DNA from: Verrucomicrobiia bacterium
Lineage (GTDB): Bacteria; Verrucomicrobiota; Verrucomicrobiia; Palsa-1439
Assembly (NCBI GenBank): GCA_035516795.1
Contig: DATIZX010000076.1
Location: 1,145 to 65,144, forward strand
DNA length: 64,000 nucleotides
Direction of reading: 5' to 3'
Within the stretch, counting starts at the first letter, position 1. Every line of letters starts with the position of its first letter. This document shows positions 5,072 through 50,173 of this stretch, in pieces. The position numbers and the translations under genes were made by a program. The notes under the pieces are model-generated. The model was not told the origin of the DNA and did not search any database. It saw nothing but the letters and a program-made list of their open reading frames with translations.

Positions 5072-5077
5072 CTGTAC

Positions 5078-5752: not shown

Positions 5753-5782
5753 CGGTTGTTCCGATCGACGAGGCGCGCCGTG

Positions 5783-7534: not shown

Positions 7535-7535
7535 A

Positions 7536-9425: not shown

Positions 9426-9584
9426 GATGGTTGTCCAGCCTTTACTGCCCGGGTGATGCTGTGCCTCCTCCAATCACAAGAACAGGATTCGCGCCGGCTT
9501 TGTAATGCGTCTGCGGAACAGACAATCCGATGATGTCCCTTCGAATGGCCACCACGGCGTTCAGACCAGCCACTTTGCCAAAGG

Positions 9585-10517: not shown

Positions 10518-10525
10518 CTAATCTC

Positions 10526-14152: not shown

Positions 14153-14219
14153 GATCGAAATTCGATTCGCGACGGTCGTGAATGCTGCGGCTGATAGAAC
14201 GACTGAACTTCGACGGAGC

Positions 14220-17628: not shown

Positions 17629-17636
17629 CGGACTGA

Positions 17637-18500: not shown

Positions 18501-18518
18501 AAACGGAATTGCCGCGGA

Positions 18519-22015: not shown

Positions 22016-22017
22016 AA

Positions 22018-25733: not shown

Positions 25734-25740
25734 TGCGTTC

Positions 25741-30461: not shown

Positions 30462-30480
30462 GAAGGATCCATTCGCTTGG

Positions 30481-31374: not shown

Positions 31375-31404
31375 TCTTCAGCAATCCCGCGGTTGCTCAA
31401 TTAT

Positions 31405-32292: not shown

Positions 32293-32307
32293 CTACTCCC
32301 ACCAGCA

Positions 32308-33021
32308 CTATGCTTTTTGCATGGGACGAATGTCGATTTCCGTGATTTCGGCGGTGCGTGGCAGGCAGAGCGCATGCAGCACTGTCGCGGCAACATCCGC
32401 CGGCTGCAACAACCGCTCCGGTCGGTATTCTTTGCCTTCTGCTTGGTGAAGAGCAGCTTGCATGGGGGTTGCCGTCCGACCGACAAAAACACTCAGCACC
32501 CGAACTCCATCGACGTTCACTTCCTGGCGCAAACTATCGGCCATCGCCTTCAGGGCTGCTTTGGTTGCCGCATATTGGCTGATCAACGCCGCAGGCGTCA
32601 GGCGCGCGACGCTGGAATTGATGAAAACAATCTGACCATGCCGTTGACGCAGACCGGGCAAGAGCGCCTGCGTCAGTACGAATGGCGCGCGGACGTTGAC
32701 GCGGTACTGCCGGTCAAGGTTGGCCGGAGATGCGGTGGTAGTGCTTTCCCTCACAAACACGCCCGCACTGTGGACCAGAATATCCGCCCCTCCGAATTCC
32801 TTTTGGATGGCACTGGCGGCATCGAGAATCTGACGTTCCACGTCCAAATCAACGGTAAACCGGGCAGAATGAGGGGCCGAAACGTGAACTCGTTCCACGT
32901 GACGGCCGAGCAAGCACAGCGTTGCCCCTTCGGCGCCGAGTGCCAGCGCGATGGCTTTGCCAATGCCGCTGCTGGCACCAGTGACGACCGCAATCTGGTC
33001 CGTGAGTGGACCACGCATCAT
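32308..33021 (-). CDS. SDR-family oxidoreductase
   Basis: Reads VTGASSGIGKAIAL...YxxxK. Confidence 0.8.
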   Translation of the reverse strand: MMRGPLTDQIAVVTGASSGIGKAIALALGAEGATLCLLGRHVERVHVSAPHSARFTVDLDVERQILDAASAIQKEFGGADILVHSAGVFVRESTTTASPANLDRQYRVNVRAPFVLTQALLPGLRQRHGQIVFINSSVARLTPAALISQYAATKAALKAMADSLRQEVNVDGVRVLSVFVGRTATPMQAALHQAEGKEYRPERLLQPADVAATVLHALCLPRTAEITEIDIRPMQKA

Positions 33022-34304
33022 TCAAGTTCCTTCAACAGTGAGTGATCGAGCAACGCGTCGGCCGCTTTGCGAATCAGAGCAAATTCCATTTCCGAACGCT
33101 CGGCGATATCGAGCAGGAAATGTTTGCCATCGGAGAGGTTCAGTACCCAGAGCATGGCCAGTTCAAAATTCCGTGAACCAGTTTGGCCGCCGACGTTTTG
33201 ATAAAGCCCGCGCCGGCCCAGTTGGGGTTCGCATTTCGGATTGAGATTCACGCAGGTTCGGTTGCCTTCCAATACATCGAGTACCGCGAGGCATTTCTGG
33301 AAGGAATCGGCGAGGCTCGCCGGTTTCACGAATTCCAGGTTGTCCGCCGACGTGTGATACTCGGGGTAACGACCGTTCGGGGTGCGCATGAAGCAACCGA
33401 CCGGGAGATCGAAACCCGGCGAGCAATACTGGCGCTCATCGTACCCGTAGGGAGAGAAATTTTGGATCTCAAATTGTTGGCCGGAATGCTTCAGAACGTG
33501 CGCGACAGCCCGGTCAATCTCAGCATTGCCGCGCCGGCTCTTCTTATAGGTCGATGGGCCTGCGTCGCCGACGCAAGTGATTACCAACCCGTGCTTGATC
33601 TTGGCGGCGTTCGATTCGTTGCGGCTGAGCCAGGTAATGGAGCCGATGGTGCCCGGAATGAAGAGAAATCTGTACGAATACCGCCGAGTCACAGCACCAA
33701 GGTGCTTTGCCAGAAAGGTCGTCAATGCGATGCCGGACAAATTATCATTGGCGAGCGAAGGATGACAGGTGTGACAAGAGAGCAGAACCTCGTCGCAGCT
33801 GTGACCGGGCAGGTAAAGCTCTCCATACGTGAGATGGCCGTCCTGTAATGTCGAATCGATCGAAACTTCATATTCGTCATCCGGCAGGGAAAGCAATTGG
33901 CTGTGACTCAAACAAAAGCCCCAGCGCTCTGCATAGTAGGACGTGCGATAAGGAATCCAGTCCGGGTGCTCTGGAAGAGAATAAAGATGCGGTTTCAATT
34001 CGGGCAGACGCATCCTCGCCTTGACTGGAATGCTGTATTGGAGCACGTGCAGGTTTGACTTTTGGAAATCGATGACCCGCTCGCCTTTGCTGTTTTTGAT
34101 GTAGGCATCGCGGATATTCCATTCCTTCGGCACGATCCAGTCGAACACCCGCGTTCCGCTCGGGACCTCCTGCACGTCCAGGGAAACATGACGCTTCAAT
34201 GCTTTCAGCGTCTCGCGGAAACCAGTGCCGGTAATGCTCCGGCAGAGAGGGTACAACTCCCCGATCAGACGGTGCATCTCGTGACCAGTATGTTCGGCGG
34301 TCAT
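33018..34304 (-). CDS. Aminopeptidase-like domain protein (DUF4910/DUF2172-like, M28-like metal site)
   Basis: CHTCHPSLANDNLSGIA resembles the M28/M20 metal-binding block. This family is typically found in sugar-modification clusters. Confidence 0.45.
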   Translation of the reverse strand: MTAEHTGHEMHRLIGELYPLCRSITGTGFRETLKALKRHVSLDVQEVPSGTRVFDWIVPKEWNIRDAYIKNSKGERVIDFQKSNLHVLQYSIPVKARMRLPELKPHLYSLPEHPDWIPYRTSYYAERWGFCLSHSQLLSLPDDEYEVSIDSTLQDGHLTYGELYLPGHSCDEVLLSCHTCHPSLANDNLSGIALTTFLAKHLGAVTRRYSYRFLFIPGTIGSITWLSRNESNAAKIKHGLVITCVGDAGPSTYKKSRRGNAEIDRAVAHVLKHSGQQFEIQNFSPYGYDERQYCSPGFDLPVGCFMRTPNGRYPEYHTSADNLEFVKPASLADSFQKCLAVLDVLEGNRTCVNLNPKCEPQLGRRGLYQNVGGQTGSRNFELAMLWVLNLSDGKHFLLDIAERSEMEFALIRKAADALLDHSLLKELE

Positions 34305-34831
34305 CCTTTGAAGTACGGGTAATTATCGTCGCGGTCGGTGATCACGGTCACCTCACCGGGCCAGCGGACCCGGAACGCGGGGTCATTCCAGCGTACACCG
34401 GCCGCATGGGGGGGAGCGTAATAAGCCGACATTTGGTAGAAAATTTCGGTGGTGTCTTCGAGAGTCAGGAAACCGTGCGCGCAGCCCGGGGGAATCACCA
34501 TCATGCGATGATTGGCGGCTGACAAGGTATCACCTACCCATTGTTTGAACGTTGGAGAATCAGGCCGCAGGTCGATCGCCACATCGTAAAGAGAACCCAT
34601 CGTGCAACGGACAATCTTGGTTTCTGCGTGCGGTGGTTTCTGGTAATGCATGCCGCGCAGGGTGCCCTTGCGTTTGTTGAACGAAATATTGCATTGCACC
34701 AGGCGCGAGTCGATTCCCTGCTCTTCGAATTCAGTCTGGCACCACGCGCGGGCAAAGAAACCACGCGCATCGGGAATCAGTTCGGGGTCGAGTACAAATA
34801 CGCCCTGGATCTTTGTCTTTGTGAAAAGCAT
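34301..34831 (-). CDS. NDP-4-dehydro-6-deoxyhexose 3,5-epimerase-like cupin (RmlC family)
   Basis: Reads GVFVLDPELIPDARGFFARAW...KGTLRGMHYQ...MMVIPPGCAHGF. Confidence 0.8.
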   Translation of the reverse strand: MLFTKTKIQGVFVLDPELIPDARGFFARAWCQTEFEEQGIDSRLVQCNISFNKRKGTLRGMHYQKPPHAETKIVRCTMGSLYDVAIDLRPDSPTFKQWVGDTLSAANHRMMVIPPGCAHGFLTLEDTTEIFYQMSAYYAPPHAAGVRWNDPAFRVRWPGEVTVITDRDDNYPYFKG

Positions 34832-34837
34832 GTGTTT

Positions 34838-35494
34838 CTATCCGATGAGCACCTTGGGACAATAAAACGCTTCCGCATACTTGCTGGGGGAATTGGATTC
34901 GAGTCCGCGCAAGCGGAGCAGCGCCAGAAACGTGTCGGCGTCGAACCACTGCTTATTCTTCTGTGTTTTGAACGTCTCGCAGATGTAATGAACTTTGCGT
35001 TCGGCCAGGGATTTCTCCACATGGACGTAGGCATTGGGGGTCCCCATGTCGCCATCATATTTTGGGATTTCGTATTCGAGAATCAGATGGTTGCGAAACG
35101 CATTCCACGTCAATTCCGCAATCAGCCGGTGGTCTTGGTGCAGGTCGCGCCGGTGATGGGTAAAGATGATGTCCGGAGAGATCTGCTGGCTCAATTGCTG
35201 GACGAATTTTTTGATCCGATCGCCCGCGAACGGAAAATAACTGTCGCGGAATTTCCTGATGACAAGACGTTTCTGCCGGGCATTCCGCAGAAACAACTGC
35301 GCGCCTCTCCGCGCTTCCCGGGTTCTTGCAAGGTTCGCGCTCAAAACGATCCAATGAACGCAAAGGTTGGGATCCAACTCAGTTAGCTTCAGCAACGTGC
35401 CGCCGCAGCCGATTTCGATGTCATCGGCGTGGGCGCCGAGACACAATACCGTAAGCGGTGAGCCACTCTTGTGATTGAAACTTAGCGTGAGCAT
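34838..35494 (-). CDS. PIG-L/LmbE-family deacetylase
   Basis: Reads LCLGAHADDIEIGCGGTL...HHRRDLHQDH. Confidence 0.75.
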   Translation of the reverse strand: MLTLSFNHKSGSPLTVLCLGAHADDIEIGCGGTLLKLTELDPNLCVHWIVLSANLARTREARRGAQLFLRNARQKRLVIRKFRDSYFPFAGDRIKKFVQQLSQQISPDIIFTHHRRDLHQDHRLIAELTWNAFRNHLILEYEIPKYDGDMGTPNAYVHVEKSLAERKVHYICETFKTQKNKQWFDADTFLALLRLRGLESNSPSKYAEAFYCPKVLIG

Positions 35495-35515
35495 CAGAAC
35501 CGGGAGGACACTATC

Positions 35516-36316
35516 TCAATTGGCTTCGGCCTCATGCAAGGGATTCTTCCAAACTTCCCACGGGGCATTGCCGCGGGCGTGGAGTTCCTCGAGTTGCTGT
35601 TTGTCCTTGAAAGTGTCCATCGCGGCCCAGAATCCATCGTAACGAAAGGCGGCCAGTTGATGGTCCTGAATAAGCCGCTGGAATGGACCCTGCACGAGTT
35701 CTTCACCGTTCTGGACATAGTCGAAGATTTCTTTACGAAACACGTAGAAGCCGCCATTGATGCGGATATTGGACCGATGAATGTCACGGATATCGGTGAC
35801 CGCTCCTTGCTCGCTGAGCGAAACGAAATGATAGGTCAGGTTCGGCTTGACGCACAAGAAGGTAGCGATGGTGTTCTGCTGCTTGGCGAAATCGAGCAGG
35901 TCGGGCAGAGGCATGTTGGTCAGGCCATCGCTGTAGTTGGTCAGGAATACGTCTTCGCCATTGAGATAACGCTGCACGAGTTTCAACCGCTGCCCGACCG
36001 TGCAATACATGCCGGTATCCACGAATGTGATTTTCCAGTCTCGCATATCGCTACTCAGCAGTTCGACATTGCGCCCGCCATCACTGAGCACGAAATCGTT
36101 GAGCAGACATTCATTGTAATTGAGAAAGTGCTGCTTGATCAGGTCAGCCTTGTAACCGAGGCACAGGATAAACTCGTTATGACCGTAATAGGCATAATAC
36201 TTCATGACATGCCAGAGGATGGGCATGTTGCCAATCTTCACCAGGGGCTTGGGCAGGCTTTCCTCGGTATCTTTCAACCGCATGCCCAGCCCTCCACAAA
36301 ACAAAACAACCTTCAT
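35516..36316 (-). CDS. Glucose-1-phosphate cytidylyltransferase-like nucleotidyltransferase (RfbF paralog)
   Basis: Reads MKVVLFCGGLGMRLKDTEESLPKPLVKIGNMPILWHVM. The start is internal; the ORF track's 5' extension overlaps the upstream gene. Confidence 0.75.
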   Translation of the reverse strand: MKVVLFCGGLGMRLKDTEESLPKPLVKIGNMPILWHVMKYYAYYGHNEFILCLGYKADLIKQHFLNYNECLLNDFVLSDGGRNVELLSSDMRDWKITFVDTGMYCTVGQRLKLVQRYLNGEDVFLTNYSDGLTNMPLPDLLDFAKQQNTIATFLCVKPNLTYHFVSLSEQGAVTDIRDIHRSNIRINGGFYVFRKEIFDYVQNGEELVQGPFQRLIQDHQLAAFRYDGFWAAMDTFKDKQQLEELHARGNAPWEVWKNPLHEAEAN

Positions 36317-36345
36317 AAGCCGGCTCCTTTTTTCTTTCCTTGACT

Positions 36346-37614
36346 CTAAGAAATATCCAGCGGCGAAAACACCTGCACCTCGGGTATGGGCACCACGAAT
36401 TGTCCACCCCAATTCTTGATAAATGCCATTTGCTGCATGATCTCGTCTTTGATGTTCCAAGGTAGGATCAATACAAAATCAGGTTTCGTTTCGCGAATCT
36501 TGTCCGGCGCATAAACCGGAATGTGGGTGCCGGGCAGAAACAACCCTTGTTTGTGTGGACTCCGGTCTACCGTGTAATCGAGGAAATCCGTTCTCGTGCC
36601 GCAGTAGTTGAGCAGCGTGTTGCCCTTGGCCGGGGCGCCGTAACCGGCAATGGTTTTGCCATTGCGTTTGGCAGCAATCAGAAAATCCAGCAGCTTGCGC
36701 TTGGTTTCCTTTACGCGTTCCGTGAACGAGAAATACGTCTCAAGTTGATCGAAACCAGCGGTCAATTCGCGCTGACGGAGTTCTTGCACGCGCGAAGTCA
36801 CCGGATGCGACCCCTCCGCTGTATGCCGAACGTAAATTCGCAAGGACCCGCCGTGCGTGGGCAATTCCTCCACGTCGAACACGGTCATCGCGTGCGCTCC
36901 GAATATCTTCCCGACCACGAGCAGGGACAAGTATTGGTAATGCTCGTGGTAAATGGTGTCGAACTGGTTTTCCGCCATTAACCGCATCAGGTGCGGGAAT
37001 TCCATTGTCAGCACGCCGGTCGGCCTGAGAAGAATCCGCAAACCCTCGACAAAATCGTTAATATCAGGCACATGGGCCAGCACGTTGTTGCCCACGAGGA
37101 GATCAGCCTGCGAATGGTCGCGCACGATTTCACGCGCCGTTTGTTCGCCGAGGAATTTCATCACGGTAGGGATGCCCTTTTTCTCAGCAGCGGCAGCAGT
37201 GTTGGCAGTGGGCTCGATTCCCAGAACGGGAATCCCCTTCGCCAGAAAATACTGCAGCAAATATCCATCGTTGCATGCAACCTCGATCACCTGATGTTGT
37301 GGGCCCAGCGCGAGGCGCCCGGTAATCATTTCGACGTATTTTTTTGCATGCTCCAGCCAACTATCGGAGAAAGACGAGAAATACGCATAGTTGTCGCTGA
37401 AGATGTGTCGGGCGCTGATGCAATCAGCCACCTGTACCAAAAAGCAACTGGCGCAGACCTTCACATGCAGCGGATAGAATGGCTCCATCTCGCCCAATTG
37501 CGCCGCATTCAGGAAATCATTTGAAATAGGCGATGCACCCAAATCAATGAACGTGTGCGCTAGCGGTGCACCACAAAAGCGACAGGATGGAGAGGTCAAG
37601 ATGAATGCCTCCAA
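36346..37614 (-). CDS. NDP-hexose C-methyltransferase (TylCIII/Methyltransf_13+14-like)
   Basis: Has an N-terminal Zn-ribbon (CRFCGAPL...CASC), a class I methyltransferase core and a C-terminal C-methyltransferase domain. The start is probably TTG at about 37614 or 37599, overlapping the upstream stop. The ORF track's Arg-rich N-terminal extension is rejected. Confidence 0.72.
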   Translation of the reverse strand: MEAFILTSPSCRFCGAPLAHTFIDLGASPISNDFLNAAQLGEMEPFYPLHVKVCASCFLVQVADCISARHIFSDNYAYFSSFSDSWLEHAKKYVEMITGRLALGPQHQVIEVACNDGYLLQYFLAKGIPVLGIEPTANTAAAAEKKGIPTVMKFLGEQTAREIVRDHSQADLLVGNNVLAHVPDINDFVEGLRILLRPTGVLTMEFPHLMRLMAENQFDTIYHEHYQYLSLLVVGKIFGAHAMTVFDVEELPTHGGSLRIYVRHTAEGSHPVTSRVQELRQRELTAGFDQLETYFSFTERVKETKRKLLDFLIAAKRNGKTIAGYGAPAKGNTLLNYCGTRTDFLDYTVDRSPHKQGLFLPGTHIPVYAPDKIRETKPDFVLILPWNIKDEIMQQMAFIKNWGGQFVVPIPEVQVFSPLDIS

Positions 37615-38627
37615 TAGAAACGCTCGTCGATTTGCGCGGACTGCAGGAGGTGTTCGAGTTGTTTCAGCCGAGTGAACGCTCGGAACTCGAACACCTCGCG
37701 TGTCAGATTGATTTTCTCGAACACAGCCCGCAGTTCGCGCGCGCCGGTGTGCGCGTCGCGCTGGCAACGAAAACCGGGGAGACGGGAGGTGATTTTGTCG
37801 AAATTGACGCGATAACTCCGGTTATCCGCGCCCCGCGCGCCGAAAGTCAGCGCGCAGCCGGGGAAAGCTTCCGCGACAATTTCGGCGATCTCCCGCACCC
37901 GATAGTTCTGGCCGTTATCGCCAACGTTAAACACCTGATTGTGTATGACCTCGCGCGGTGCCTGGAGAGTGCAGGCTATCGCGTCACAGATGTCCAGGAC
38001 GTGAACGAGAGGGCGCCACGGTGTGCCGTCACTGATCATTTTGATTTCCCTGGTTGTCCAGGCAAGACCGGCCAGGTTGTTGAGAACGATGTCGAAGCGC
38101 ATGCGCGGCGACGCACCAAACGCCGTGGCATTGCGCAAGAAAGTCGGCGAAAAACTGTTGTCCGCCAACTCCCCGATATCGTGTTCCACGAGCACCTTGC
38201 ATTGGGCATAAGCGGTCTGGGGATTGGGCGGCGATTCTTCCGTGACATTCTCGGACGAGGCGACCCCATAAACGCTGCAGGAAGATGTGTAAACGAAGCG
38301 GGTGACCCCGACGTCTTTGGCTTTCCGGGCCAGGGCCACGCTGCCGACGTGGTTGATTTCGAATGTGAGTTCTGGATTGTGCTGTCCCAGCGGGTCGTTG
38401 GAGAGTTCTGCCAAGTGCACGACTGCATCGTATCCGCGCAGATCGTCATGAGTGATTCGCCGGATGTCTTTCTTGACGTGGTGTGCGACAGATGGGATTC
38501 CGTCATAAAGGAGACCATCGAGGTAAAAGCCGGTGTCCAAGCCTGTCACCTTGTGGCCCCGCTCACGAAGCATTGCCTCCAGCAACACCCCGATGTAGCC
38601 GTCGGTTCCGGTGACGAGTAGTTTCAT
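37596..38627 (-). CDS. NAD-dependent epimerase/dehydratase (extended SDR; CDP-sugar pathway enzyme)
   Basis: Reads MKLLVTGTDGYIG...YAQCK. Its exact activity (4,6-dehydratase, 2-epimerase or reductase) cannot be determined from the sequence alone. Confidence 0.78.
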   Translation of the reverse strand: MKLLVTGTDGYIGVLLEAMLRERGHKVTGLDTGFYLDGLLYDGIPSVAHHVKKDIRRITHDDLRGYDAVVHLAELSNDPLGQHNPELTFEINHVGSVALARKAKDVGVTRFVYTSSCSVYGVASSENVTEESPPNPQTAYAQCKVLVEHDIGELADNSFSPTFLRNATAFGASPRMRFDIVLNNLAGLAWTTREIKMISDGTPWRPLVHVLDICDAIACTLQAPREVIHNQVFNVGDNGQNYRVREIAEIVAEAFPGCALTFGARGADNRSYRVNFDKITSRLPGFRCQRDAHTGARELRAVFEKINLTREVFEFRAFTRLKQLEHLLQSAQIDERFYWRHSS

Positions 38628-38654
38628 GTCTTGCTCAGGCCAAGGGACACTCGA

Positions 38655-39428
38655 TCACTTCCAGATTTTCCACGGAACATTTCCAGAGTGCCACATGTCT
38701 TCCAGAAGATTCTTTTCCTTCAAGGTATCCATGCACGACCAGAATCCGGTGTGCCGGTACCCCATGAGTTGGCCATCGCGGGCGAGGTTTTCGACGGGCG
38801 CATGTTCCCAAACCGTGTCATCGCCTTCGATGTAATCCAGGCATTTGCGGTGGAGCACAAAATAACCTCCATTGATCCAGCCTTCGCTGGCTTCCGATTT
38901 TTCGTAGAACTCCCGCACGCGCTCGCCCTCGAATCCGATACGGCCGAATCGGGCTGGTGAGTGCACGGTAGTCACCGTCGCCAGCTTGCCATGCTCGTGA
39001 TGAAACGCGGTGAGCGCCGTAAGGTCGAGGTCGGCCACGCCGTCCCCATACGTGAACATGAACGTTTCATCTTTGGCGATCCATTTCGCGAGGCGTTTCA
39101 AACGGCCGCCGGTGTTGGTATTTAATCCCGTATCGATCAGGTGCACTTTCCATCGCGGTTGATTGCCATCGTGAATTTTGACCTTGCCTCCGGCGAGATC
39201 GACAGTCATGTCGTTGTTGAACGCGTAAAAATTCAGGAAATAATCTTTGATGATTTCCCCCCGATAACCGAGCGCAATGATGAACTCGGTGATGTTGTGG
39301 GCGGCGAAGATGTTCATGATGTGCCAGAGGATGGGACGACCCCCAATCTCGACCATGGGTTTGGGACGCAACATCGTCTCTTCGGATAACCTCGAACCGA
39401 ATCCGCCTGCCAGAATAATCGCTTTCAT
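38655..39428 (-). CDS. rfbF: Glucose-1-phosphate cytidylyltransferase
   Basis: 257 aa. Reads MKAIILAGGFGSRLSEETMLRPKPMVEIGGRPILWHIMN...FWSCMDTLKEK, a canonical RfbF. Confidence 0.85.
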   Translation of the reverse strand: MKAIILAGGFGSRLSEETMLRPKPMVEIGGRPILWHIMNIFAAHNITEFIIALGYRGEIIKDYFLNFYAFNNDMTVDLAGGKVKIHDGNQPRWKVHLIDTGLNTNTGGRLKRLAKWIAKDETFMFTYGDGVADLDLTALTAFHHEHGKLATVTTVHSPARFGRIGFEGERVREFYEKSEASEGWINGGYFVLHRKCLDYIEGDDTVWEHAPVENLARDGQLMGYRHTGFWSCMDTLKEKNLLEDMWHSGNVPWKIWK

Positions 39429-40741
39429 TGCCTCATCTCACTCAGTTTATACACTCCTGATTCGTAAACCTCGACCCCGCAGTCATTGCGAATTTGCATG
39501 TACCAGCTTCCGATTTGTGCCGCCGCCTGCACCCGGGCTTCGGCTGTTCGCGATGGATCGTAGCGCTCAAAGTATTCAACAATGCTCTCCACGGCATGTA
39601 CTTGGTCCAGATGTTGCAAGGAAAGAATTGGGACTGTTTGGTTACCCGTGTAACGATCGAAATCGGCGTACTTGTAATCGTAATAAGGACCAGAGGTCAC
39701 CGGCACCGCGGGGCAGCCCCCCATCATGGAAAAGAGGCAGCCATGAAAGGACATGGAGATGGTGCCGTACGCTTGTTCCGATAAATCAATCAGGTCATAC
39801 TCGTCTTTCAATCGCGCCACTTCGACGTTCAGTCGTCCCCCATTCGCATTCTGCAGATGGGACAAGATTTGCAGGTCATCGCAAAATGCAGGATCACTCA
39901 TCCCAAACAGCTTGAAAGGCAGGGCCAACCTTTGGTCGAGCGCTGCCAAGAAGGCGGCAAAGGCTTTCATCTCTGAGGCAGTGATGGCCCGCACGAAGTT
40001 GGTGCTCCGAAAATTGATCAAGATAAATGACCGGGCACGTTGGTACCGATGCTTCACCGGATACAAACGTGTGCAGGCGAACACCTCGTCGAACAGGAGT
40101 TGGTGACCCGCAAATCCAAATTCTTCCACACACCGGGCGTTGCGACAGCGCACGTCTGTGAACAACGGTCGAATGAAGAAGCGGAAAAACCACCGTTGCG
40201 CCAATGTTTGCCGACCGTACTGTTGCGGACCGCAGAACACGTCTTTGTGATAAAAACGGCAGAGCGCAAAATGCCAGAATAAGGGACAGGCGTTCGTCCA
40301 AAAAAACTGGGCCGACCACGCGCTCCCGCCATAGAAATAGCACGCCTCACAGCGCTCAATGTCGGCAGCGATGCCTTTGAGCAGCGAACGGTTCTCTCGC
40401 GTCGACAAGAGATGGAAGGGCAGATACAGAAACGCAGCCAACGCTCTGAGTGGCTCTGGGAACCGCAGGTGTCGCGCTTTGTTAAATAGTCTGGCATAAA
40501 CATATAACAGGCCGGGTCGACAACTCAATTGGACTTTTGGCGCCGCTGCTGTTTCTGCCCGTTCGCATTGTGTCTTGTTGAATTGATCGTCGAACCATCC
40601 GCACTGTTCTTCTGAATGGATCAGACACTCCACGCCTTCCGAATCGCCCAGGCCGGCAATGACGCTGCGGAGAATGCATTCGTCTCCGAGAGAGGCCATG
40701 CCATTATACGACCCGAGCACTAGAAACAATTTCGTTTGCAC
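39425..40741 (-). CDS. Polysaccharide pyruvyl transferase family protein
   Basis: A GTG start at 40741 gives MQTKLFLVLGSYNGMASLGDECIL, matching the pyruvyl-transferase N-terminal GxYGxxNxGDxxIL motif. The ORF track's longer 5' part overlaps the upstream gene. Confidence 0.6.
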   Translation of the reverse strand: MQTKLFLVLGSYNGMASLGDECILRSVIAGLGDSEGVECLIHSEEQCGWFDDQFNKTQCERAETAAAPKVQLSCRPGLLYVYARLFNKARHLRFPEPLRALAAFLYLPFHLLSTRENRSLLKGIAADIERCEACYFYGGSAWSAQFFWTNACPLFWHFALCRFYHKDVFCGPQQYGRQTLAQRWFFRFFIRPLFTDVRCRNARCVEEFGFAGHQLLFDEVFACTRLYPVKHRYQRARSFILINFRSTNFVRAITASEMKAFAAFLAALDQRLALPFKLFGMSDPAFCDDLQILSHLQNANGGRLNVEVARLKDEYDLIDLSEQAYGTISMSFHGCLFSMMGGCPAVPVTSGPYYDYKYADFDRYTGNQTVPILSLQHLDQVHAVESIVEYFERYDPSRTAEARVQAAAQIGSWYMQIRNDCGVEVYESGVYKLSEMRQ

Positions 40742-40743
40742 AT

Positions 40744-42051
40744 TCAGTTGCGGACGGCTCTCATGAAACGCAGTATGGGTGGTGGTACCATCGGCCGAAG
40801 CAGGGCTTTCATTTGCCTGCGCCGCTGTTGCCAGCGAGCTTGCTGAAGACAACGGGCAAGGAAGCGTTCGACGTCGGATTTGTTCTGCTCAACGGCCGTC
40901 TTAAGCAACGTCTGATACGTATCCTGCCGATACTCACCATCAAGAAGTTCATCAAAAACGGTACAGCCAGGCTGTGCCAAATTGGACAGAAACCTTTCTT
41001 CGTTGAACTCCACTGTTTCGAAGGGTACGCCATAAAGCCGGTACAAAACATAGTAGCGAAAGCATTTCTCGCAGTTCAGGCACCAGCGTTCGCCGCGATT
41101 GGCATAGCAAGAATATTGATAATGGCCGATGGAGGGATGGCGAGTCCATAAATTTTCAAACACAGTCAGTTTGTTCATTTCGCCGAGCCAGGGTTGATAA
41201 TCGAATAGCGGAGCGAAGATTGCGGAGAGTGGTCCTGTGATCTCCGGGGTAAAGCAATGGAAGCTGAGATCCTCTCCAAATTGTTGGATTTCGTTCCCCT
41301 GACACACCGTGCTCAACTCTTCGTCGACCACGAGGGGCGCGACCAGCGCCAGCAATGATGGCGTGAACGAAACGGCGTTGGCGAACAGCGTACCGGTCAC
41401 GATTCGTTCCTGAAGCGCCGGCTGCAATTGGGCCAACACGCCGTATACGTTGCTATGGATATGCCGGAGCTGAAGCCCCAATTGGCTTGCGATACGGGAA
41501 TCTTGCTCAAGTTTCGTTGGATTTCGTACAGGATCGCTCCCGATCCAGCCAGGGCCAAGAAAACTGATTAAGATCGGCTTGATGCCCTTGGCCAACAATT
41601 CACCAAGTACCAACAGACTTTCAGCCCCGCCGCCAAAAAAGAGACCGGTTTTACGCTGCGCGCTTTCCAATGAATGACATGGCGTATCTGCACCGGGCAA
41701 CATCACCGGCGGTTCCATGTGGATTTCAACAGCTCTGCCAAAATGCCGCGCCGTTATGTTCTTCACGAAATGTGGCCATCCGTTCAGGATTTGACGTAAG
41801 GCGTCAACTTCGTTGCCGCCGGCCTGCGGCTCGATCAAGGACGACTCTATCCGAAACCGGCTTTCAGTGAAACTCAGGGGCAGTGAGGCTGGCAGGGCCA
41901 GATACAAGCTTGTCACACCCGCTGCTCGCTTGAGTGTGGACGGATACTCGACCCAAAATGAGTTTGGATAACCCGGGAAAGGATTGGGTTCCCAACGACA
42001 TTCCAGTCGCCGAGAGGAGATCTCCTCGATGGAAATGACGTACTCGTTCAT
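40744..42051 (-). CDS. PP-loop superfamily (QueC/ExsB-like) protein with degenerate P-loop
   Basis: LFFGGGAESLLVLG sits where SGGxDS is expected. The C-terminal SCYANRGERWCLNCEKCFRYYVLYRL resembles the QueC-type Zn-binding Cys cluster. Confidence 0.4.
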   Translation of the reverse strand: MNEYVISIEEISSRRLECRWEPNPFPGYPNSFWVEYPSTLKRAAGVTSLYLALPASLPLSFTESRFRIESSLIEPQAGGNEVDALRQILNGWPHFVKNITARHFGRAVEIHMEPPVMLPGADTPCHSLESAQRKTGLFFGGGAESLLVLGELLAKGIKPILISFLGPGWIGSDPVRNPTKLEQDSRIASQLGLQLRHIHSNVYGVLAQLQPALQERIVTGTLFANAVSFTPSLLALVAPLVVDEELSTVCQGNEIQQFGEDLSFHCFTPEITGPLSAIFAPLFDYQPWLGEMNKLTVFENLWTRHPSIGHYQYSCYANRGERWCLNCEKCFRYYVLYRLYGVPFETVEFNEERFLSNLAQPGCTVFDELLDGEYRQDTYQTLLKTAVEQNKSDVERFLARCLQQARWQQRRRQMKALLRPMVPPPILRFMRAVRN

Positions 42052-42063
42052 GTAACCGGCGCT

Positions 42064-43863
42064 CTATTCATGATCCTTGGCCCATAACAGCAAACCCAGG
42101 AGAAGTTTGGGCCCGGAGGCATCGGCCAGGCCGTCATGGAAGGACACTGTCGCCTGCGGAGGCGGCAGCAATTCATTCAGCACTTCGCTGTGGAACAGAT
42201 GCTGAACGCACGACCGATATGGTTCACCTTCCTGGCGAACTGCCCGCCACGAGGCGCCATTGAAATCGTAGGTCCGGCAATAATAGCGCCGATCGACCGG
42301 GTGTACTTTTCGTCGGAGCGCTTCCCACGCCCGGCCATAGAGGTGCCAGGCAAGCATCCAGCGGAACCGCGGGTGAATCGGCAGCGCATAGTCCGCATTC
42401 CGATCCAGTGGAAGAGCGGCCAAGTGGGGAAACCGGCAATGCAGCAACTCCAACTGTAGTCGTCGTTCTTCCAAGGTGACGACGGGCATCCCGCTCATGA
42501 CTTCCAGGACTTTCTGATCGACATAAGGCTGCACCGGCCAGGCGCCAAAACAAAGCGGCCACAGCGCGCTTCCAACATGGAATCGCTGCCGGTGTTGCAG
42601 ATGGGAGCACCAAGCCCGGTGCGATTCTTGATCGGCAGATCTCAGGTAAGCCGTTTCAAGCCCTGCAATCGTTTCGTCCACCAGGTCGCCAAACACTTCT
42701 CGCAGGAGCAGCTTCTTTAAAACTTTGGGTCGAATCGCCCACTCGTTGTGATGGGCAAAGTAAGTCCGGAAAGAAAAGTTGCCTTGGGAGGGTGAATAAG
42801 CTCCCTCGAGATGAGCGCCGCCCAAAATTACGTTCCCGAGATAACCGGTAACCACTCGCGGGTTGACTGCCCCCAAGGCCGGCGGAGTGCCCCAGTTCAT
42901 GATCGTATTAAAGCCGTTGGCCAGATGCTCCCAACGAGCCTGACACTCCGCGTACCGGGGATAAGAACTGCCCGCGACATGAACGGGATGATGAGGAAAC
43001 CCCAAAGTCCGCGCGACTCGCGAAGCACACCTGAAATCAATGTCGCTGGGCAACCCAAACGTCACCGCGACTGTATCGCGACGCCCTTGGCGTTTCAAAA
43101 ATCCCCCCAGCATCCGTGAATCCAATCCGCCCGAGAGCAAGAGACTGTGGGATTGAGTTGCGCGCGCATGGCGCGTCACCGCCTCGTCAAGTGCGCCATC
43201 GATGAGACGCACCTGGGCTTCCAGCGGCAGATCGTAATATCTTGCAGAGAACGGGATTCGATACTGCAACTTTTCTTGTGGCAATGCACCGGGACTCCAT
43301 GCAAGGCAATGCCCCGGGGCCAACCGCCGCACGTTACGCCATAGGGTTTGACCATTGATCAGGTGCATGGTGAGCAAGATGCCGACCAATCCAGCCGCAT
43401 TCAGCTCCATGTGGAAGCAAGGATGATATCGAAAGAGTTCCGGGCTTGAACCTACCAGCAAAACGTCCGGCCACCCGCAGTAATAGACGGGAAACAATCC
43501 GAGGATATCCGCACTGACAATAACCCCGTTATCTTGAAGGTGAACCACACCGGCATGAAAACCGTCATAAGGCTCCGGCAAAGTTGCCGGCCAGACACTC
43601 CAATGATCCCGCATCTGCCGAGCGCTCACAGGCTGGATAGCCGACTTGGGAATCGCGTCTCCCCAAAGCACCGCGGCCCCGGTTTCATCAGCGCTTTGAC
43701 TGACCGGCGCTTGCGGGTGGGCGGCCCAGAGGGCACAGAAATCGCCGCGAGCGCAACGATCGGTCTTTAGCCCTTTCACCGGCGGCAACAACGGTTCGAC
43801 CGTTTGGATAAACCGGTTGCGGCGCGTGGCGTCAGCGTCCACAATGATGAGAAAACTGGCCAT
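42064..43863 (-). CDS. Asparagine-synthetase-like protein lacking the N-terminal nucleophile Cys
   Basis: 599 aa. Has the PP-loop LLLSGGLDSRMLGG and an AsnB-like N-domain, but begins MASFLIIVD with no Cys2. Confidence 0.65.
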   Translation of the reverse strand: MASFLIIVDADATRRNRFIQTVEPLLPPVKGLKTDRCARGDFCALWAAHPQAPVSQSADETGAAVLWGDAIPKSAIQPVSARQMRDHWSVWPATLPEPYDGFHAGVVHLQDNGVIVSADILGLFPVYYCGWPDVLLVGSSPELFRYHPCFHMELNAAGLVGILLTMHLINGQTLWRNVRRLAPGHCLAWSPGALPQEKLQYRIPFSARYYDLPLEAQVRLIDGALDEAVTRHARATQSHSLLLSGGLDSRMLGGFLKRQGRRDTVAVTFGLPSDIDFRCASRVARTLGFPHHPVHVAGSSYPRYAECQARWEHLANGFNTIMNWGTPPALGAVNPRVVTGYLGNVILGGAHLEGAYSPSQGNFSFRTYFAHHNEWAIRPKVLKKLLLREVFGDLVDETIAGLETAYLRSADQESHRAWCSHLQHRQRFHVGSALWPLCFGAWPVQPYVDQKVLEVMSGMPVVTLEERRLQLELLHCRFPHLAALPLDRNADYALPIHPRFRWMLAWHLYGRAWEALRRKVHPVDRRYYCRTYDFNGASWRAVRQEGEPYRSCVQHLFHSEVLNELLPPPQATVSFHDGLADASGPKLLLGLLLWAKDHE

Positions 43864-45144: not shown

Positions 45145-45148
45145 CCGA

Positions 45149-46101: not shown

Positions 46102-46674
46102 TCAGGAAGCGTCCACCAACTGCGAGCGACTGACGATCAAGCGCGCCTGACAACCGAGCGTAGATAACAGCACGGCCACGCGATCGCGGTCGCTCATTTC
46201 CTGCAAAACGACGGCCTGCAATCCGCGTAATGGTCCGTCGGCAATCTCGACGAGGTCGCCCGGTCGAAAACCGGGGCGGACCGTGACCACGTCGACGGCT
46301 TCGCCGGCCCATTCTTTGAGCTGTTCGATAATCCGCTCGTCGACAATTGTAGGCTTGCCGCCAAAACTGACCACGCCCACGACTTGCGGAGCGTATTGCA
46401 CGGCGCGAAAGCTCTGGGACAGATTCAGACGACAAAAAACGTAGCGCGGGAATAAAGGTCCGATAACCCAACGCTTCACGCGGCGAATCGTCTTGAGGCG
46501 TTTGAGTCGAGGATAATACGTTTCCAGACCGAGGGATTCCCGGCAGTACTGCTCGGCACTGGCTTCCTTGCGCGGTCGCGTATGAACGCACAACCAGCCC
46601 GTTGTGTTGGGAAATGCTCCGTTCTGGGACGGGACCGCCGCCGGAGAGGCTGAAGACATGGCTTCGTTATTCAC
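46102..46674 (-). CDS. NusG/RfaH-family transcription antiterminator paralog (UpxY/LoaP-like)
   Basis: NGN-like N-terminal domain (WLCVHTRPRKEASAEQYCRESLGLETYYPRLK) and a KOW motif (FRPGDLVEIADGPLRGLQAVV). Confidence 0.75.
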   Translation of the reverse strand: MNNEAMSSASPAAVPSQNGAFPNTTGWLCVHTRPRKEASAEQYCRESLGLETYYPRLKRLKTIRRVKRWVIGPLFPRYVFCRLNLSQSFRAVQYAPQVVGVVSFGGKPTIVDERIIEQLKEWAGEAVDVVTVRPGFRPGDLVEIADGPLRGLQAVVLQEMSDRDRVAVLLSTLGCQARLIVSRSQLVDAS

Positions 46675-46820
46675 TGGTTATCGTTGTTCTCGGAGTCAGC
46701 GGTGGCGTCTGGGCACGCTGCCGCCATTCCGGTGCTTTCCTGTTTGTGCAACAAGAACCCGGTTTTTCTGTTCCTTGGCCGGCCGACAGCCCGGCCATTT
46801 CAGCGCCTCATTCAATTACA

Positions 46821-48950
46821 TCAAGCGGCGCCGTTTCGCTTCCCCTTCTTGTGATAATAGGAATAGCGGTACGGATAGTAATAGAATCCGTGCAATTCCT
46901 GATCGATGTTGTTCATGACGACTCCGACCAGCGGAGCGCCACACTCCCGCAGCTTCTGCATGGAGCGGGAAACAATCTCGCGACTCACTTTACCGAATCC
47001 AATGACGTAAACGACCCCTTTCACATGCGGCAACAGCAGGAGCGGATCGCTGACCGCAGTGACCGGCGGGCTGTCGATAATGACGCGATCATATTGCCGA
47101 CAAGCTTCCTGGATGAGTTCTGCCAAACGGTCGGATCCAAGTAGTTCGGGCGCGTTGGGGGGTACGTCACCCACTTGAAGAACGTCCAGGTTCGGAATGT
47201 CGGTCGCCGCAACCACATCCTCCAGCTTCGAATGATTGGTCAAATACAACGAAAGTCCTTTGTCAGCACGGGAACGGAAGACCTTGTGTTGCACGGGATG
47301 ATGCAGATCGCAATCGATCAATAAAGTCCGTTGCCGGTTGGAAGCGAAAGCGATCGCCAGGTTGGCAGACACGACCGATTTGCCTTCGCCGGGAGCTGTG
47401 CTGGTGACGAGCAACGATTTCGCGGCATTCAACTCTGGCTTCAGAGTGATGGTGGCCCGCAAATTTCGAAAGGCCTCGGCGGAAATGGAATGCGGCTGCA
47501 ATTGGAGCACGCGGCCATTCTGGGTACCGTCGGGCAGCTCAATGCGCGGTACACCGGTCAGTAAGGGCAGGCCCAGCAAATCCACGTCCTCGTACGACTT
47601 AATCTTGTCGTCGAACGAATTCATCAGGAAGCTCAAACCCACCGCGGCTCCCAATCCCAAAATAACGCCCATCGCGAAATTACGCGTTTTTCTCGGTTTG
47701 AACGGCGCTCCGGGCACTTGCACCGGATCGACCAGCCGTATGTTGTTAGACTCCAGTTTGCCAGCGACACTGGCTTCCTTCATCCGCGTGAGGATCGCGT
47801 TATACATCTGGCTGTCCGCATCGGCATTGCGCTTCAACGTGTTGTACTCCGCCTGTTTGCTGTCCATTTGCAGCGCCTGCTGCTCCTGATCCTTGAGTGC
47901 GCCCTGCAAACTGTCCTCGTTAGCCTTCGCAAGGGAATATTGCGACTGCAGCGAATTGACGACATCGTTGCAGGCGGCCAAGAGCCGGCCGTTGAGGGCC
48001 TTCAGCTCAGCTTGCAGAGCCACGATTAACGGATGCTGGTCTTTGTAGCGTTCGCGCAAGACGGCCAATTGCACTTGTTTCTCGCTCAATTGTTGACGGA
48101 TGGCAGCCACCTTCGGGTTGCTCAGAATGGCTGGAATCTCCGTGACTTTGCGACCGTCTTCCAATTGCTTCTTCACCACATCCCAGTCAGCTTCAGCCGC
48201 GAGCCGCGTTTTCTCGGCTTGCGTAACGGCGGCGTTGAGTTCTTTGAGCTTGTCAACAACGATGTCCTGCCGCTCTTCCACCGAAACCGCGTGAGAACGC
48301 TGCCGGTACTGGGCCAGAGCCGCTTCCGATTTTTCGAGCTTGGACCTGTATTCGTCTGCTTGCTGCTGTAACCAGCGGACGGCGTCGCTGGCTGCGGCCA
48401 TTCGTCTATCGAGATTCTGTTTGATGTACTGCTGCGCCACGCCAGTGGCCAACAGCGCTGCCAATTGCGGGTCGGCGTTGTCTACATTAATGGCAATCAA
48501 CCGGCTGCCGCGAATCGGCTCAACGCTGAGACAGCCTTGTAGCACACCCGCCAAATCAGTATTGCCTCCGGCGCCGGCGAGAAATGCGGCGTTCTGGTCG
48601 AGCTTCAACGCTTGGACCACCAATTCGCATAACGTCCGGCTCTGGATGAGCTGCATCTGCGTGTTCATGTACTCCTCGTCCCGTGTGTCGGAGGTCAATA
48701 CGTCCTGGATGTTCAGAACCTTCACTGTATCGGAATCCACCTGGACGACAGCAGTGGCTCGATAAGTGGGAGTTTGCCGATAAGTCCAAACGACAGCACC
48801 GATGACCACTGTCAAAAACGCCGCCAGCGCCAGATATTTGTGTTCAACGAGAACAACGAGGTATTGTTGCCACGGAAAACGTCGTTGTTGTGGGCGTCCG
48901 ATCATCGGCCGGGGTGCCGTGGTAGAAATTGCAGGAAGGGTTGTTTGCAT
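46821..48950 (-). CDS. wzc: Polysaccharide co-polymerase / tyrosine autokinase (Wzc/ExoP/GumC-like BY-kinase)
   Basis: Two TM helices flank a large coiled-coil periplasmic domain. The C-terminal kinase has Walker A TAPGEGKSVVSANLA and a Tyr-rich tail YYYPYRYSYYHKK. Confidence 0.85.
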   Translation of the reverse strand: MQTTLPAISTTAPRPMIGRPQQRRFPWQQYLVVLVEHKYLALAAFLTVVIGAVVWTYRQTPTYRATAVVQVDSDTVKVLNIQDVLTSDTRDEEYMNTQMQLIQSRTLCELVVQALKLDQNAAFLAGAGGNTDLAGVLQGCLSVEPIRGSRLIAINVDNADPQLAALLATGVAQQYIKQNLDRRMAAASDAVRWLQQQADEYRSKLEKSEAALAQYRQRSHAVSVEERQDIVVDKLKELNAAVTQAEKTRLAAEADWDVVKKQLEDGRKVTEIPAILSNPKVAAIRQQLSEKQVQLAVLRERYKDQHPLIVALQAELKALNGRLLAACNDVVNSLQSQYSLAKANEDSLQGALKDQEQQALQMDSKQAEYNTLKRNADADSQMYNAILTRMKEASVAGKLESNNIRLVDPVQVPGAPFKPRKTRNFAMGVILGLGAAVGLSFLMNSFDDKIKSYEDVDLLGLPLLTGVPRIELPDGTQNGRVLQLQPHSISAEAFRNLRATITLKPELNAAKSLLVTSTAPGEGKSVVSANLAIAFASNRQRTLLIDCDLHHPVQHKVFRSRADKGLSLYLTNHSKLEDVVAATDIPNLDVLQVGDVPPNAPELLGSDRLAELIQEACRQYDRVIIDSPPVTAVSDPLLLLPHVKGVVYVIGFGKVSREIVSRSMQKLRECGAPLVGVVMNNIDQELHGFYYYPYRYSYYHKKGKRNGAA

Positions 48951-48957
48951 GGCAATC

Positions 48958-49674
48958 CTAAAAGACGGATTCTGGCACGAAGACCACGTCGTCGGGAATC
49001 AGTTCGACATCTTTGCTGCTGTCGCCGCTGCTGATGATAGCGGCGACGTTCACGGTGATCTTCTTCTCGAGGCCGTTTTCGGTCCGAGAGATGCTGACCC
49101 GGCTGGGAGCTGCGATCGGCGTGAAGCCCCCAGCCCGAGCGATGGCCTGCAATAACGTGAGTTTCTCATCCGCGGAGAAGTCGATTGCCCCCGGCGAGCG
49201 TACCTGCCCGAGAATGAAAACTCGGCGGCTGTTCGCCCGATCGACGAGCACGGAAACCTGTGGATGCACCAGATAGTCGCGACCGAGCCGCTGTTTCAAC
49301 AAATGCTCCGCTTCACTGACACTGAGCCCACCGACGAGAACCGCTCCCAGCATCGGGTAGTTGATCATTCCTTGAGTCGAAACGCGGGTCTTGACAGACA
49401 AATCGGGTTCGTTGAAGACATTGATTTGAAGAGTGTCCAACGGCTGGATCCGGTAGTCGGACGGCGAGGACGCAGATGTAGATGCCGCTTGTGCCGACGA
49501 GTGAACGACCGCCGACGATTCACTGGATGACGGGCCCGGCTGTATGACGCGGCTGCTCGAGTATGTTTCTGCGCAGGATACAAAACCGAGACAAAGCGCC
49601 AGGGAGATCATTAATCTCACCAGGGCACTAGCCGGCCCGTACATTTTGACACCCTCTATTCGACCCTTGGCCAT
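48958..49674 (-). CDS. wza: Polysaccharide export outer-membrane/periplasmic protein (Wza/GumB-like; Poly_export + SLBB)
   Basis: Reads PLDTLQINVFNEPDLS...RVFILGQVRSPGAIDF, with an N-terminal signal/lipobox-like LGFVSC. It is the first gene of the operon. Confidence 0.8.
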   Translation of the reverse strand: MAKGRIEGVKMYGPASALVRLMISLALCLGFVSCAETYSSSRVIQPGPSSSESSAVVHSSAQAASTSASSPSDYRIQPLDTLQINVFNEPDLSVKTRVSTQGMINYPMLGAVLVGGLSVSEAEHLLKQRLGRDYLVHPQVSVLVDRANSRRVFILGQVRSPGAIDFSADEKLTLLQAIARAGGFTPIAAPSRVSISRTENGLEKKITVNVAAIISSGDSSKDVELIPDDVVFVPESVF

Positions 49675-50173
49675 GATTCTTCAGTTCGCTTGACTCAAAG
49701 CCCAACCCATTTCGCCTAGTGCTGCCGGGGATTTGATCGTGAACAGAACAGTTCGACTTCGCAAGACGTCTGTTCCGATCCCCAAACTCCGGCATGCCAC
49801 CTTTGCTGGCAAATTATACTGAACAATGTGCCTTTTCACAATAGCGTCAATAGAAAACGTGCCGGGCTCACATGCGCACAAGATCGGTAAGCCTCACGCG
49901 TTCGCAGTGCCCCGAATTATCTCATTATTATCCAGCGGGGCGCGTGCCAAATGGATCGGTGAAGTGCCCTCCTTTTCAACAGTGAATCTCCTTGTGTAAG
50001 TTATTGACTACACGGAGGTTCACGTTACCGCAATCCCAAGATTGCGCGACCATCTTGTCGCCAGTCCGCCGGCATTGTCCATATTGTGGTCACCGATGTT
50101 CGTGCCATGAACGAATTTGCTGGAGGGCGAGCGTTCCACAAAAGCAAAACTCCCGGACGGTTCCGCTCCGAGT
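49675..50173 (-). promoter_or_regulatory. Operon leader / promoter region upstream of wza (lower GC, AT-rich patches, contains the palindrome at 50216-50227 nearby)
   Basis: About 500 bp non-coding stretch with clearly lower GC than the flanks (e.g. tctcattattatccag, aaattatactgaacaatgtgcc). It is the only sizeable gap in 50 kb. Confidence 0.35.

Follow-up and report, generated by a model that had tools for sequence, protein, structure and literature searches.

The 64 kb stretch of DNA analysed here (the window; contig DATIZX010000076.1 of a Verrucomicrobiia bacterium), to which our view of this genome and the motif counts made in it are confined, carries a polysaccharide gene array of approximately 44 co-directional open reading frames (ORFs) that extends over ~49 kb of the (−) strand, from position 49674 to the window start. 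Within this array lie the gene for a specialised NusG paralog (NusG-SP) and, directly in front of it, an element resembling ops, the site at which RfaH is recruited in Escherichia coli; gene and element are the subject of this report. The first gene of the array encodes a wza-like protein of outer-membrane polysaccharide export (48958..49674, −; Poly_export and SLBB domains), followed by a wzc-like gene (46821..48950, −; Wzz, GNVR and P-loop tyrosine-kinase-type domains) located 5′ of the ops-like site. Between wzc and the NusG-SP gene (46102..46674, −) there are 146 nt (46675-46820), the biggest non-coding gap of an array in which other gaps are mostly ≤ 30 nt. A gap of 95 nt then leads to wzm (~45149-46006, −; ABC2_membrane), the first gene 3′ of the NusG-SP gene, which together with wzt (43864-45150, −; ABC_tran and Wzt_C) encodes an ABC polysaccharide exporter, and ~40 more co-directional polysaccharide-biosynthesis genes (1017..43863, −) represent the presumed cargo of antitermination. 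A preliminary description of this DNA had recognized a very long polysaccharide array and, between wzc and wzm, a 190-amino-acid protein with NGN and KOW domains. Both hold: the domain census confirms a polysaccharide locus, and the ORF is exactly as described.

The NusG-SP ORF begins with a GTG codon. An alternative ATG at 46659 gives the 185-amino-acid product found in public gene calls (P0001, 100% identical); the 190-amino-acid form is supported, since most orthologs have an ATG at the position of the GTG. The NGN domain (Pfam PF02357, E = 2e-14) covers residues 27–119 (46318-46596) and is followed by a KOW-like C-terminal domain at approximately residues 133–186 (46117-46278). While no stand-alone Pfam KOW match was obtained for this protein, the RfaH and UpxY hidden Markov models (HMMs) align with it over their full length to approximately residue 185, and the KOW domains of solved NusG structures in the PDB align to residues 131–184. 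This is the RfaH-type architecture of an NGN domain and a single C-terminal KOW-type domain in ~160–190 amino acids. Scored against NCBIfam models with curated cut-offs (aligned residues 27–185), the protein reached 86.6 bits with the RfaH equivalog model (TIGR01955; cut-off 144.5), 75.9 bits with UpxY (NF033644; cut-off 100), 46 bits with nusG (TIGR00922; cut-off 135.7) and 38.5 bits with LoaP (NF033641; cut-off 125). By these cut-offs it falls outside the RfaH, UpxY and LoaP families. RfaH was also the top model by E-value for all 25 aligned family members, every one of them below the RfaH cut-off, and six further relatives scored 77–122 bits with this model, one of them (L039) ranking UpxY marginally first. 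NusG and RfaH were the only sequence and fold matches among solved structures and headed the Foldseek results; the NGN fold, in an N-terminal domain predicted by AlphaFold2 with a predicted local distance difference test (pLDDT) score of 80–90, superposes on the RfaH of the RfaH:ops complex at 2.0 Å over 98 columns.

The NGN plus KOW-like architecture would also suit a housekeeping NusG, and our view of the genome ends at the borders of the window. That the gene is the housekeeping nusG is nevertheless extremely improbable, given the 46 bits against the nusG equivalog cut-off of 135.7, the higher RfaH scores of all 25 family members and the presence of two such paralogs within 10 kb in related genomes. 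The flanking genes are wzc and wzm, and neither the window neighbours nor the domain census revealed a secE or rplK context. Family scores and gene context thereby confirm the earlier assignment of the protein as a specialised NusG paralog.

Homologs were taken from Verrucomicrobiia metagenome-assembled genomes (MAGs), their loci being retrieved by exact-protein look-ups and a scan of GTDB species genomes, with synteny assessed by tblastn. Close orthologs (71–86% identity) split into two synteny classes, class A (the window, L006, L007, L011–L014 and L018; eight loci) and class B (L001/L004 and nine others). Alignment of the 260 nt upstream of the start codon in loci of both classes revealed a conserved ops-like element in the wzc–nusG gap. 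The preliminary description had suggested that this gap may hold an internal promoter or a recruitment element, and that the recruitment signal may be novel because the wza leader had no canonical ops (GGCGGTAG is indeed absent there). A recruitment-type element is what the gap contains, with no conserved promoter beside it, and far from being novel the signal is nearly canonical: its core, GGCGGCAGCGTG (46714..46725, −; coding, non-template strand), is an 11/12 match to E. coli ops (GGCGGTAGCGTG), from which it departs at position 6 alone, and a 39-nt spacer separates it from the NusG-SP start codon. The pattern GGCGGYAGNNTG has this single match in the 64 kb window, inside the 146-nt gap; since ~0.3 matches would be expected by chance, the argument rests on location and conservation, not on the count. 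Abutting the core is an invariant 5′ extension, GCACCGGAAT (46726..46735, −), with the family consensus GCACCGnrAT in counts over 53 de-replicated instances, and the family consensus of the core is GGCGGYAGCnTG.

The block GCACCGGAAtGGCGGCAGCnTGCCCGG occurs in all class A loci and, in a variant form, in L017. Among loci gathered by protein similarity alone, not by motif, the strict pattern GCACCGnrAT-GGCGG[C/T]AGCnTG was found 5′ of the NusG-family gene and in its orientation at 9 of the 21 close loci as well as at ~18 distant verrucomicrobial loci (44–62% identity), the latter count being lifted to ~24 of 28 loci by a profile search; in one Nitrospirales MAG (L052) it lies just 3′ of the gene. 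A cultured relative, Horticoccus sp. (L038), is among the carriers of the motif. The nhmmer profile gave one match per locus, always on the strand of the gene and with E down to 5e-10, and no second match in the window. RfaH recruitment to E. coli ops requires G4, G5, A7 and G8, while the C3:G8 pair has an architectural role and T11-G12 induce the pause (PMC5995543; ops consensus and PrfaH site facts: PMC5995543, PMC11880322). All these positions are invariant across the protein-found loci, save for an A7 to C change in L017, and conservation ends right after the TG, the following bases varying among distant loci. Of the 53 instances, 42 have C at position 6 and 11 have T; L035 and L039 carry the T and hence a perfect ops (GGCGGTAGnnTG).

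Upstream of the core, the window fold contains a candidate pause hairpin (hairpin 2, CCGGGUUCUUGUU-gcaca-AACAGGAAaGCaCCGG; 46729..46762, −) whose 3′ arm closes in the invariant GCACCGG. Hairpins of varied sequence occupy this place in other loci, differing in their inner stems and closing on the invariant GCACCG(G). Constrained folding against shuffles gave a mean z of −1.38 in 23 genome loci, and dinucleotide shuffles of the 53 de-replicated instances a mean z of −1.27 (Wilcoxon p = 3e-8), hairpin statistics that are inflated by kinship. We propose a composite loading site consisting of this hairpin in the nascent RNA, the invariant extension and the non-template core. Another hairpin (hairpin 1, UGGCCGG...CCGGCCA; 46776..46797, −), just 3′ of the wzc stop codon, has no U-tract and was not called an intrinsic terminator; class A loci have hairpins of different sequence at its place, and an attenuator or an RNA-end structure is possible. 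The window fold offers one more stem, in which the ops core pairs with GCCACCGC further downstream (46704-46726, −); it was discarded, as the other loci do not share it.

A second conserved block, CTGTACAAAC-N6-7-GTTTGAGyrATGAT, overlaps the NusG-SP start codon in most orthologs of both classes (seen in L001, L004, L006, L011–L013, L015–L018, L020–L023 and L026), its CAAAC and GTTTG forming a small inverted repeat. Unrelated sequence replaces it in the window (46675-46713), L007 and L014, a subclade whose proteins start with MNNE. This block could be a promoter, a 5′ untranslated region or an operator.

No sigma-70-like promoter was found on the (−) strand of the 146-nt gap, nor any −35/−10 pair conserved in the gap among class A loci, and an internal promoter was rejected as unsupported, though not disproved. 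A sigma-70-type promoter region is located 5′ of wza (49813..49850, −; TTGACG at 49850-49845 and an overlapping TTGTGA-N17-TATAAT at 49841-49813), and the block is kept in 8/8 class A loci as TTGACG-N17-(G/C)ATAAT overlapping TTGyGA-N17-TAyAAT. The conserved motif might itself be a promoter (of sigma-54-like or another type) that drives the NusG gene and the genes downstream, considering that it is strand-specific, lies 5′ of the genes it would drive in a gap with no other conserved promoter, and in one register ([T/G]GCAC-N7-TGGC) has −24/−12 spacing. We regard this as very unlikely: the supposedly essential −25 G varies (T 25, G 17, C 7 and A 4), the other register (TGGCGG-CAGC-nTGC) has a spacer 1 nt short and a −12 C that is not kept in distant loci, and conservation runs through −11 to +1, which would be expected to be unconserved, fitting the ops positions instead. 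In addition, both a canonical sigma-54-like site and the sigma-70-like promoter exist 5′ of wza. A sigma-54 promoter was rejected as the identity of the motif, the spacing of GG (−25/−24) and GC (−13/−12) failing in both registers.

The sigma-54-type −24/−12 element upstream of wza (TGGCACGCGCCCCGCT; 49934-49949, −) shows GG and GC at canonical spacing, lies ~90 nt 5′ of the sigma-70-like wza promoter and is kept in six of the eight class A loci (TTTTGGCACGCGGCGCGCTGATGATAAG). It could serve the array as a second promoter, one that depends on an enhancer.

Gene order differs strongly between the two classes. All eight class A loci have the order wza-wzc-NusG, and six continue with wzm-wzt (tblastn gave no wzm/wzt match in L014 and L018). 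Class B loci show PNP_UDP_1 ... NusG, an epimerase (absent in three), a SIS-domain protein and EF-P, with no wza/wzc and no ABC transporter at the syntenic site. The PNP_UDP_1 gene flanks the locus in all orthologous genomes and is not within the 14 kb upstream in the window, so that the upstream flank must have been rearranged. The ortholog of the class B epimerase (73%) is encoded at 1035-1961 (−), the far end of the array, while in most genomes without the cluster it comes immediately after the NusG-SP gene. In the window, ~44 kb of polysaccharide genes are thus intercalated between the two, which makes the NusG-SP gene the conserved anchor of a variable polysaccharide hot spot and not a special component of this operon. 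Distant Opitutae-type relatives often have wzc/wza-like genes either behind the gene or in divergent orientation to it. In close orthologs, presence of the motif coincides exactly with presence of a long cluster behind the gene. In a neighbour-joining tree, class A and L017 form one clade nested in a class B grade, and the outgroup has the motif, which is therefore ancestral, kept where a long cluster follows and lost where there is none.

One of the class B genomes (L001) encodes a second RfaH-like NusG paralog (1-506, −; 91.7 bits with the RfaH model) 10 kb from the ortholog, indicating that the lineage carries several NusG-SP genes.

Taken together, the comparisons moderately favour a NusG-SP protein that is RfaH-like and would be loaded onto elongating RNA polymerase at the composite ops-type site in the wzc–nusG gap. 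From the family assignment, the structure of the operon and an element that is conserved, strand-specific and physically linked to the gene, we infer the following course of transcription start, pausing, recognition of DNA rather than RNA, antitermination and autoregulation. RNA polymerase would start at the conserved promoter 5′ of wza, transcribe wza–wzc and pause at the TG of the ops-like core, where the NGN domain of the factor would capture it. Thus modified, the polymerase would read the factor's own gene ~39 nt further on and then ~45 kb of packed polysaccharide genes, resisting termination and polarity. Since the factor gene lies behind its own loading site, its expression would be self-reinforcing, and since wza–wzc lie upstream of the site, the export genes would not depend on it. 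Support comes from the variable hairpin closing on GCACCG, which matches the experimentally established opsX design of a pause hairpin and a non-template-DNA hairpin (PMC11685472).

Several points weigh against such loading at this site. The case is built from sequence comparison and prediction throughout, and co-transcription of wza–wzc with the downstream genes would follow solely from the lack of a recognizable conserved promoter in the gap. The array has no more intrinsic-terminator-like sites than chance would give (22 vs 21.2; 15 vs 23.1), and these were rejected as targets of antitermination, so that the target, presumably Rho or polarity, is assumed. In the AlphaFold2 model the C-terminal domain is neither a confident KOW barrel nor an RfaH-type α-hairpin; it has a mixed α/β topology (strands 141–144 and 153–155, helix 162–174) with pLDDT 52–63 in the full-length protein, and the same topology with pLDDT 70–82 when modelled in isolation. 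A ‘mixed α/β’ class has been reported among RfaH homologs (PMC13015549). At the DNA level, T6, the most specifically read base of ops, is usually C in the family, a position at which the T6A change has only a ~3-fold cost in E. coli (PMC5995543). RfaH contacts ops through K10, H20, R23, Q24 and R73 (PMC5995543), and we mapped these residues by aligning E. coli RfaH (100% identical to 2oug_A) to 89 family members. K10 corresponds to a conserved R/K33, whereas H20 is replaced by Y43, R23 by V, S or T, Q24 by L48 and R73 by P96/Q97; one of the four base-specific side chains is kept (K10, but not H20, R23 or R73). E48, which acts in autoinhibition through the E48–R138 lock, is replaced by G72, and an invariant R90 and R/Q93 occupy the contact-residue region of the family. 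As the RfaH contact residues are mostly not kept, recognition of ops cannot be identical to that of RfaH.

The lack of conserved RfaH DNA-contact residues would also suit an element that works as RNA, as proposed for LoaP, with the hairpin and GCACCGnrAUGGCGGYAGCnUG bound in the nascent transcript. A hairpin conserved in structure and variable in sequence adjoins the motif, and the family has a very basic β-hairpin region (RLKRLKTIRRVKR). We nevertheless consider RNA readout quite unlikely, because the core coincides base for base with the mapped positions of ops DNA and ends exactly at the pause TG, because the Bacteroides hairpin-plus-core signal works via a pause hairpin and non-template DNA contacts (PMC11685472), and because the LoaP model scores weakly (38.5 bits).

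Two more counterpoints to loading at the ops-type site concern the relatives. In class B genomes (orthologs at 71–82% identity) the gene persists although its surroundings (±10 kb) are free of the motif, so that other targets of the protein must exist or have existed, and class A is a single clade, leaving few independent motif–cluster events among close relatives. The preliminary description had called the factor dedicated to its operon, which is too strong a word for a protein whose orthologs occupy a syntenic site without wza/wzc, a wzm/wzt cluster or the motif. Such orthologs would be expected of a general trans-acting regulator of several loci, comparable to chromosomal RfaH, whose position in the array is an accident of the hot spot. 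This explanation, which also accommodates the class B epimerase found 44 kb off in the window and the second RfaH-like paralog 10 kb away in L001, is in our judgement somewhat unlikely. An exact 22-mer pattern search of metagenome contigs returned 80 loci, 71 of them informative and nine with flanking sequence too short to judge. The NusG-family gene lay directly 3′ of the motif, as in the window, at 34 loci and directly 5′ of it (motif 30–330 nt past its stop codon) at 16, i.e. 50 of the 71 informative instances (70%) directly adjoin a NusG-family gene; at the remaining 21 no such gene was detected on contigs that are short, so that its absence is weakly established. Most of these gene-less matches sit inside long ORFs and, often containing a CCATGG palindrome, appear to be chance matches, for which reason they were rejected as evidence of a trans regulon. 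Intergenic gene-less copies (L122, L147, L151 and perhaps L150) are few, and precede a GT4/WecA-type gene (L122), a FemAB/GNAT gene (L147) or a multi-pass membrane protein; those in front of polysaccharide genes (L122 and L147) are what a trans regulator would predict. Action in trans is, moreover, compatible with cis loading at the ops-type site, as cis-encoded UpxY proteins act in trans too, and given class B a trans role in addition to the cis role is likely.

The locus is a known regulatory device in a new phylum, not a new device. The internal position of the gene, at first considered unusual, is that of a gene standing first after its ops-like site, as upxY and prfaH do, and both NusG-SP genes inside exopolysaccharide operons and cis-encoded factors have already been described (PMC7819879). 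Matches to the RfaH model outside Proteobacteria amount to 5%, across 23 phyla, and ops recognition has been placed ‘late’, in Proteobacteria (PMC7593976). In a literature search that covered this work apart from its supplementary phylum tables, neither the verrucomicrobial clade nor the extended motif was found to have been described. The locus offers a concrete candidate site at which a NusG paralog of a little-studied phylum would be recruited, in uncultured peat and soil Verrucomicrobiia, and metagenomes can be screened with the 22-nt motif for polysaccharide loci under NusG-SP control.

Its most interesting aspect is the cross-phylum ops core despite divergent recognition residues: an RfaH-type core is conserved far outside Proteobacteria beside proteins without the RfaH DNA-contact residues, which bears on the evolution of ops recognition. 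The composite signal ranges over Verrucomicrobiota and one Nitrospirales MAG, with a related form in Bradyrhizobium. Bradyrhizobium-type relatives (L061–L086; 35–40% identity, up to 122 bits with the RfaH model) have CACCCCGAGT-GCGGTAGCTTG, the latter being the canonical ops core, ~90 nt after the gene, in the arrangement gene, ops, then an epimerase and wzm/wzt as targets. We put forward only tentatively, as a doubtful extension, that the signal is an old cross-phylum loading site read by NGN domains lacking the RfaH contacts, combined with a split in the middle of the array. If so, ops recognition would not be ‘late’ within Proteobacteria, or else there would have been convergence on the same 12-mer; the array would be split into an antiterminator-independent export module (wza–wzc) and a self-licensing 45-kb synthesis module, the latter with positive feedback and possibly on/off heterogeneity. 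The combination of an RfaH core with the hairpin-plus-core layout of Bacteroides suggests that the composite design is general.

The remainder of the array encodes, according to the domain census, nucleotidyltransferases, NDP-sugar epimerases/dehydratases, RmlC, a C-methyltransferase, GT2 and GT4 glycosyltransferases, a carbamoyltransferase, Gmd (1988-3010, −, near the far end), a second Wzm/Wzt pair and, as its last gene, the epimerase (1017-1991, −). The two Wzm/Wzt ABC-exporter pairs (25741-27857, − and 43864-46006, −) are mutually 54% and 46% identical, which suggests two polysaccharides or a composite locus built from two clusters. A DUF4910/DUF2172/HTH_47 protein (33018-34304, −; E = 1e-117) sits amid sugar-modifying enzymes. 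A 239-amino-acid ORF (50174-50893, −), which separates the wza promoter region from the divergent genes, has no Pfam match. Divergent from the array are two tandem paralogs (51283-53439, + and 53460-55328, +) with CBM6/CBM35 carbohydrate-binding modules and an N-terminal region that is weakly nucleoside-hydrolase-like, below the cut-off. Antisense ORFs across the wzc–nusG gap (46602-47144, + and 46604-46918, +) received no support from the family search, and no Rfam family reached its gathering score anywhere in the window.

Among known systems, E. coli RfaH/ops shares with the window a two-domain NusG paralog for which RfaH is the best-scoring family model, an 11/12 non-template core including all recruitment-essential positions and the pause TG, and the tie to long polysaccharide operons. 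The window protein differs in being 28% identical to RfaH and below the equivalog cut-off (86.6 vs 144.5 bits), in three of the four base-specific contact residues and E48, none of them kept; its C-terminal domain, fold-switching in RfaH, is predicted at low to moderate confidence as mixed α/β; its site usually has C at position 6, a conserved 10-nt 5′ extension and a hairpin, and the gene is coupled to that site, whereas rfaH stands alone. In the E. coli group 1 capsule locus (K30 cps), wzi-wza-wzb-wzc are followed by a stem-loop attenuator and the serotype-specific genes, under RfaH/JUMPstart control. An export block wza...wzc, a hairpin and then a long variable biosynthetic block under an RfaH-type factor are thus common to both, although in K30 the ops/JUMPstart element is 5′ of the whole locus and rfaH is elsewhere, while here site and factor gene follow wzc.

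Bacteroides opsX comprises an upstream pause-hairpin region and a GCG..AGC non-template hairpin, with the upxY start +9 to +111 downstream (PMC11685472). The window likewise has the factor gene first after a composite site of ~40 bp with a pause-hairpin region and a non-template hairpin (the function of these parts being predicted here), a start codon a few tens of nt 3′, a capsule/exopolysaccharide locus and what would be a self-reinforcing logic. Unlike in Bacteroides, the protein stays below the UpxY cut-off (75.9 vs 100 bits), the core loop is of the 2-nt RfaH type (GCG-GY-AGC; opsX is YGCGNAGCR), the next gene is wzm and not an UpxZ-like gene, wza-wzc lie upstream in the same orientation, and there is one site per locus rather than many paralogous pairs. 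PrfaH of IncX plasmids has an ops-like site in front of its own gene (PMC11880322), and PrfaH/ActX resemble the system proposed here in that an RfaH-type factor stands at the head of the operon on which it acts and shares its transcript, an ops-like sequence separating the promoter from the factor gene (PMC11880322; PMC7819879); these factors, however, serve plasmid conjugation genes in Enterobacteriaceae and are much nearer to RfaH in sequence. In its core sequence the verrucomicrobial system would work in the manner of RfaH/ops, while its layout, a composite site with the factor gene first after it, is that of UpxY/opsX and PrfaH.

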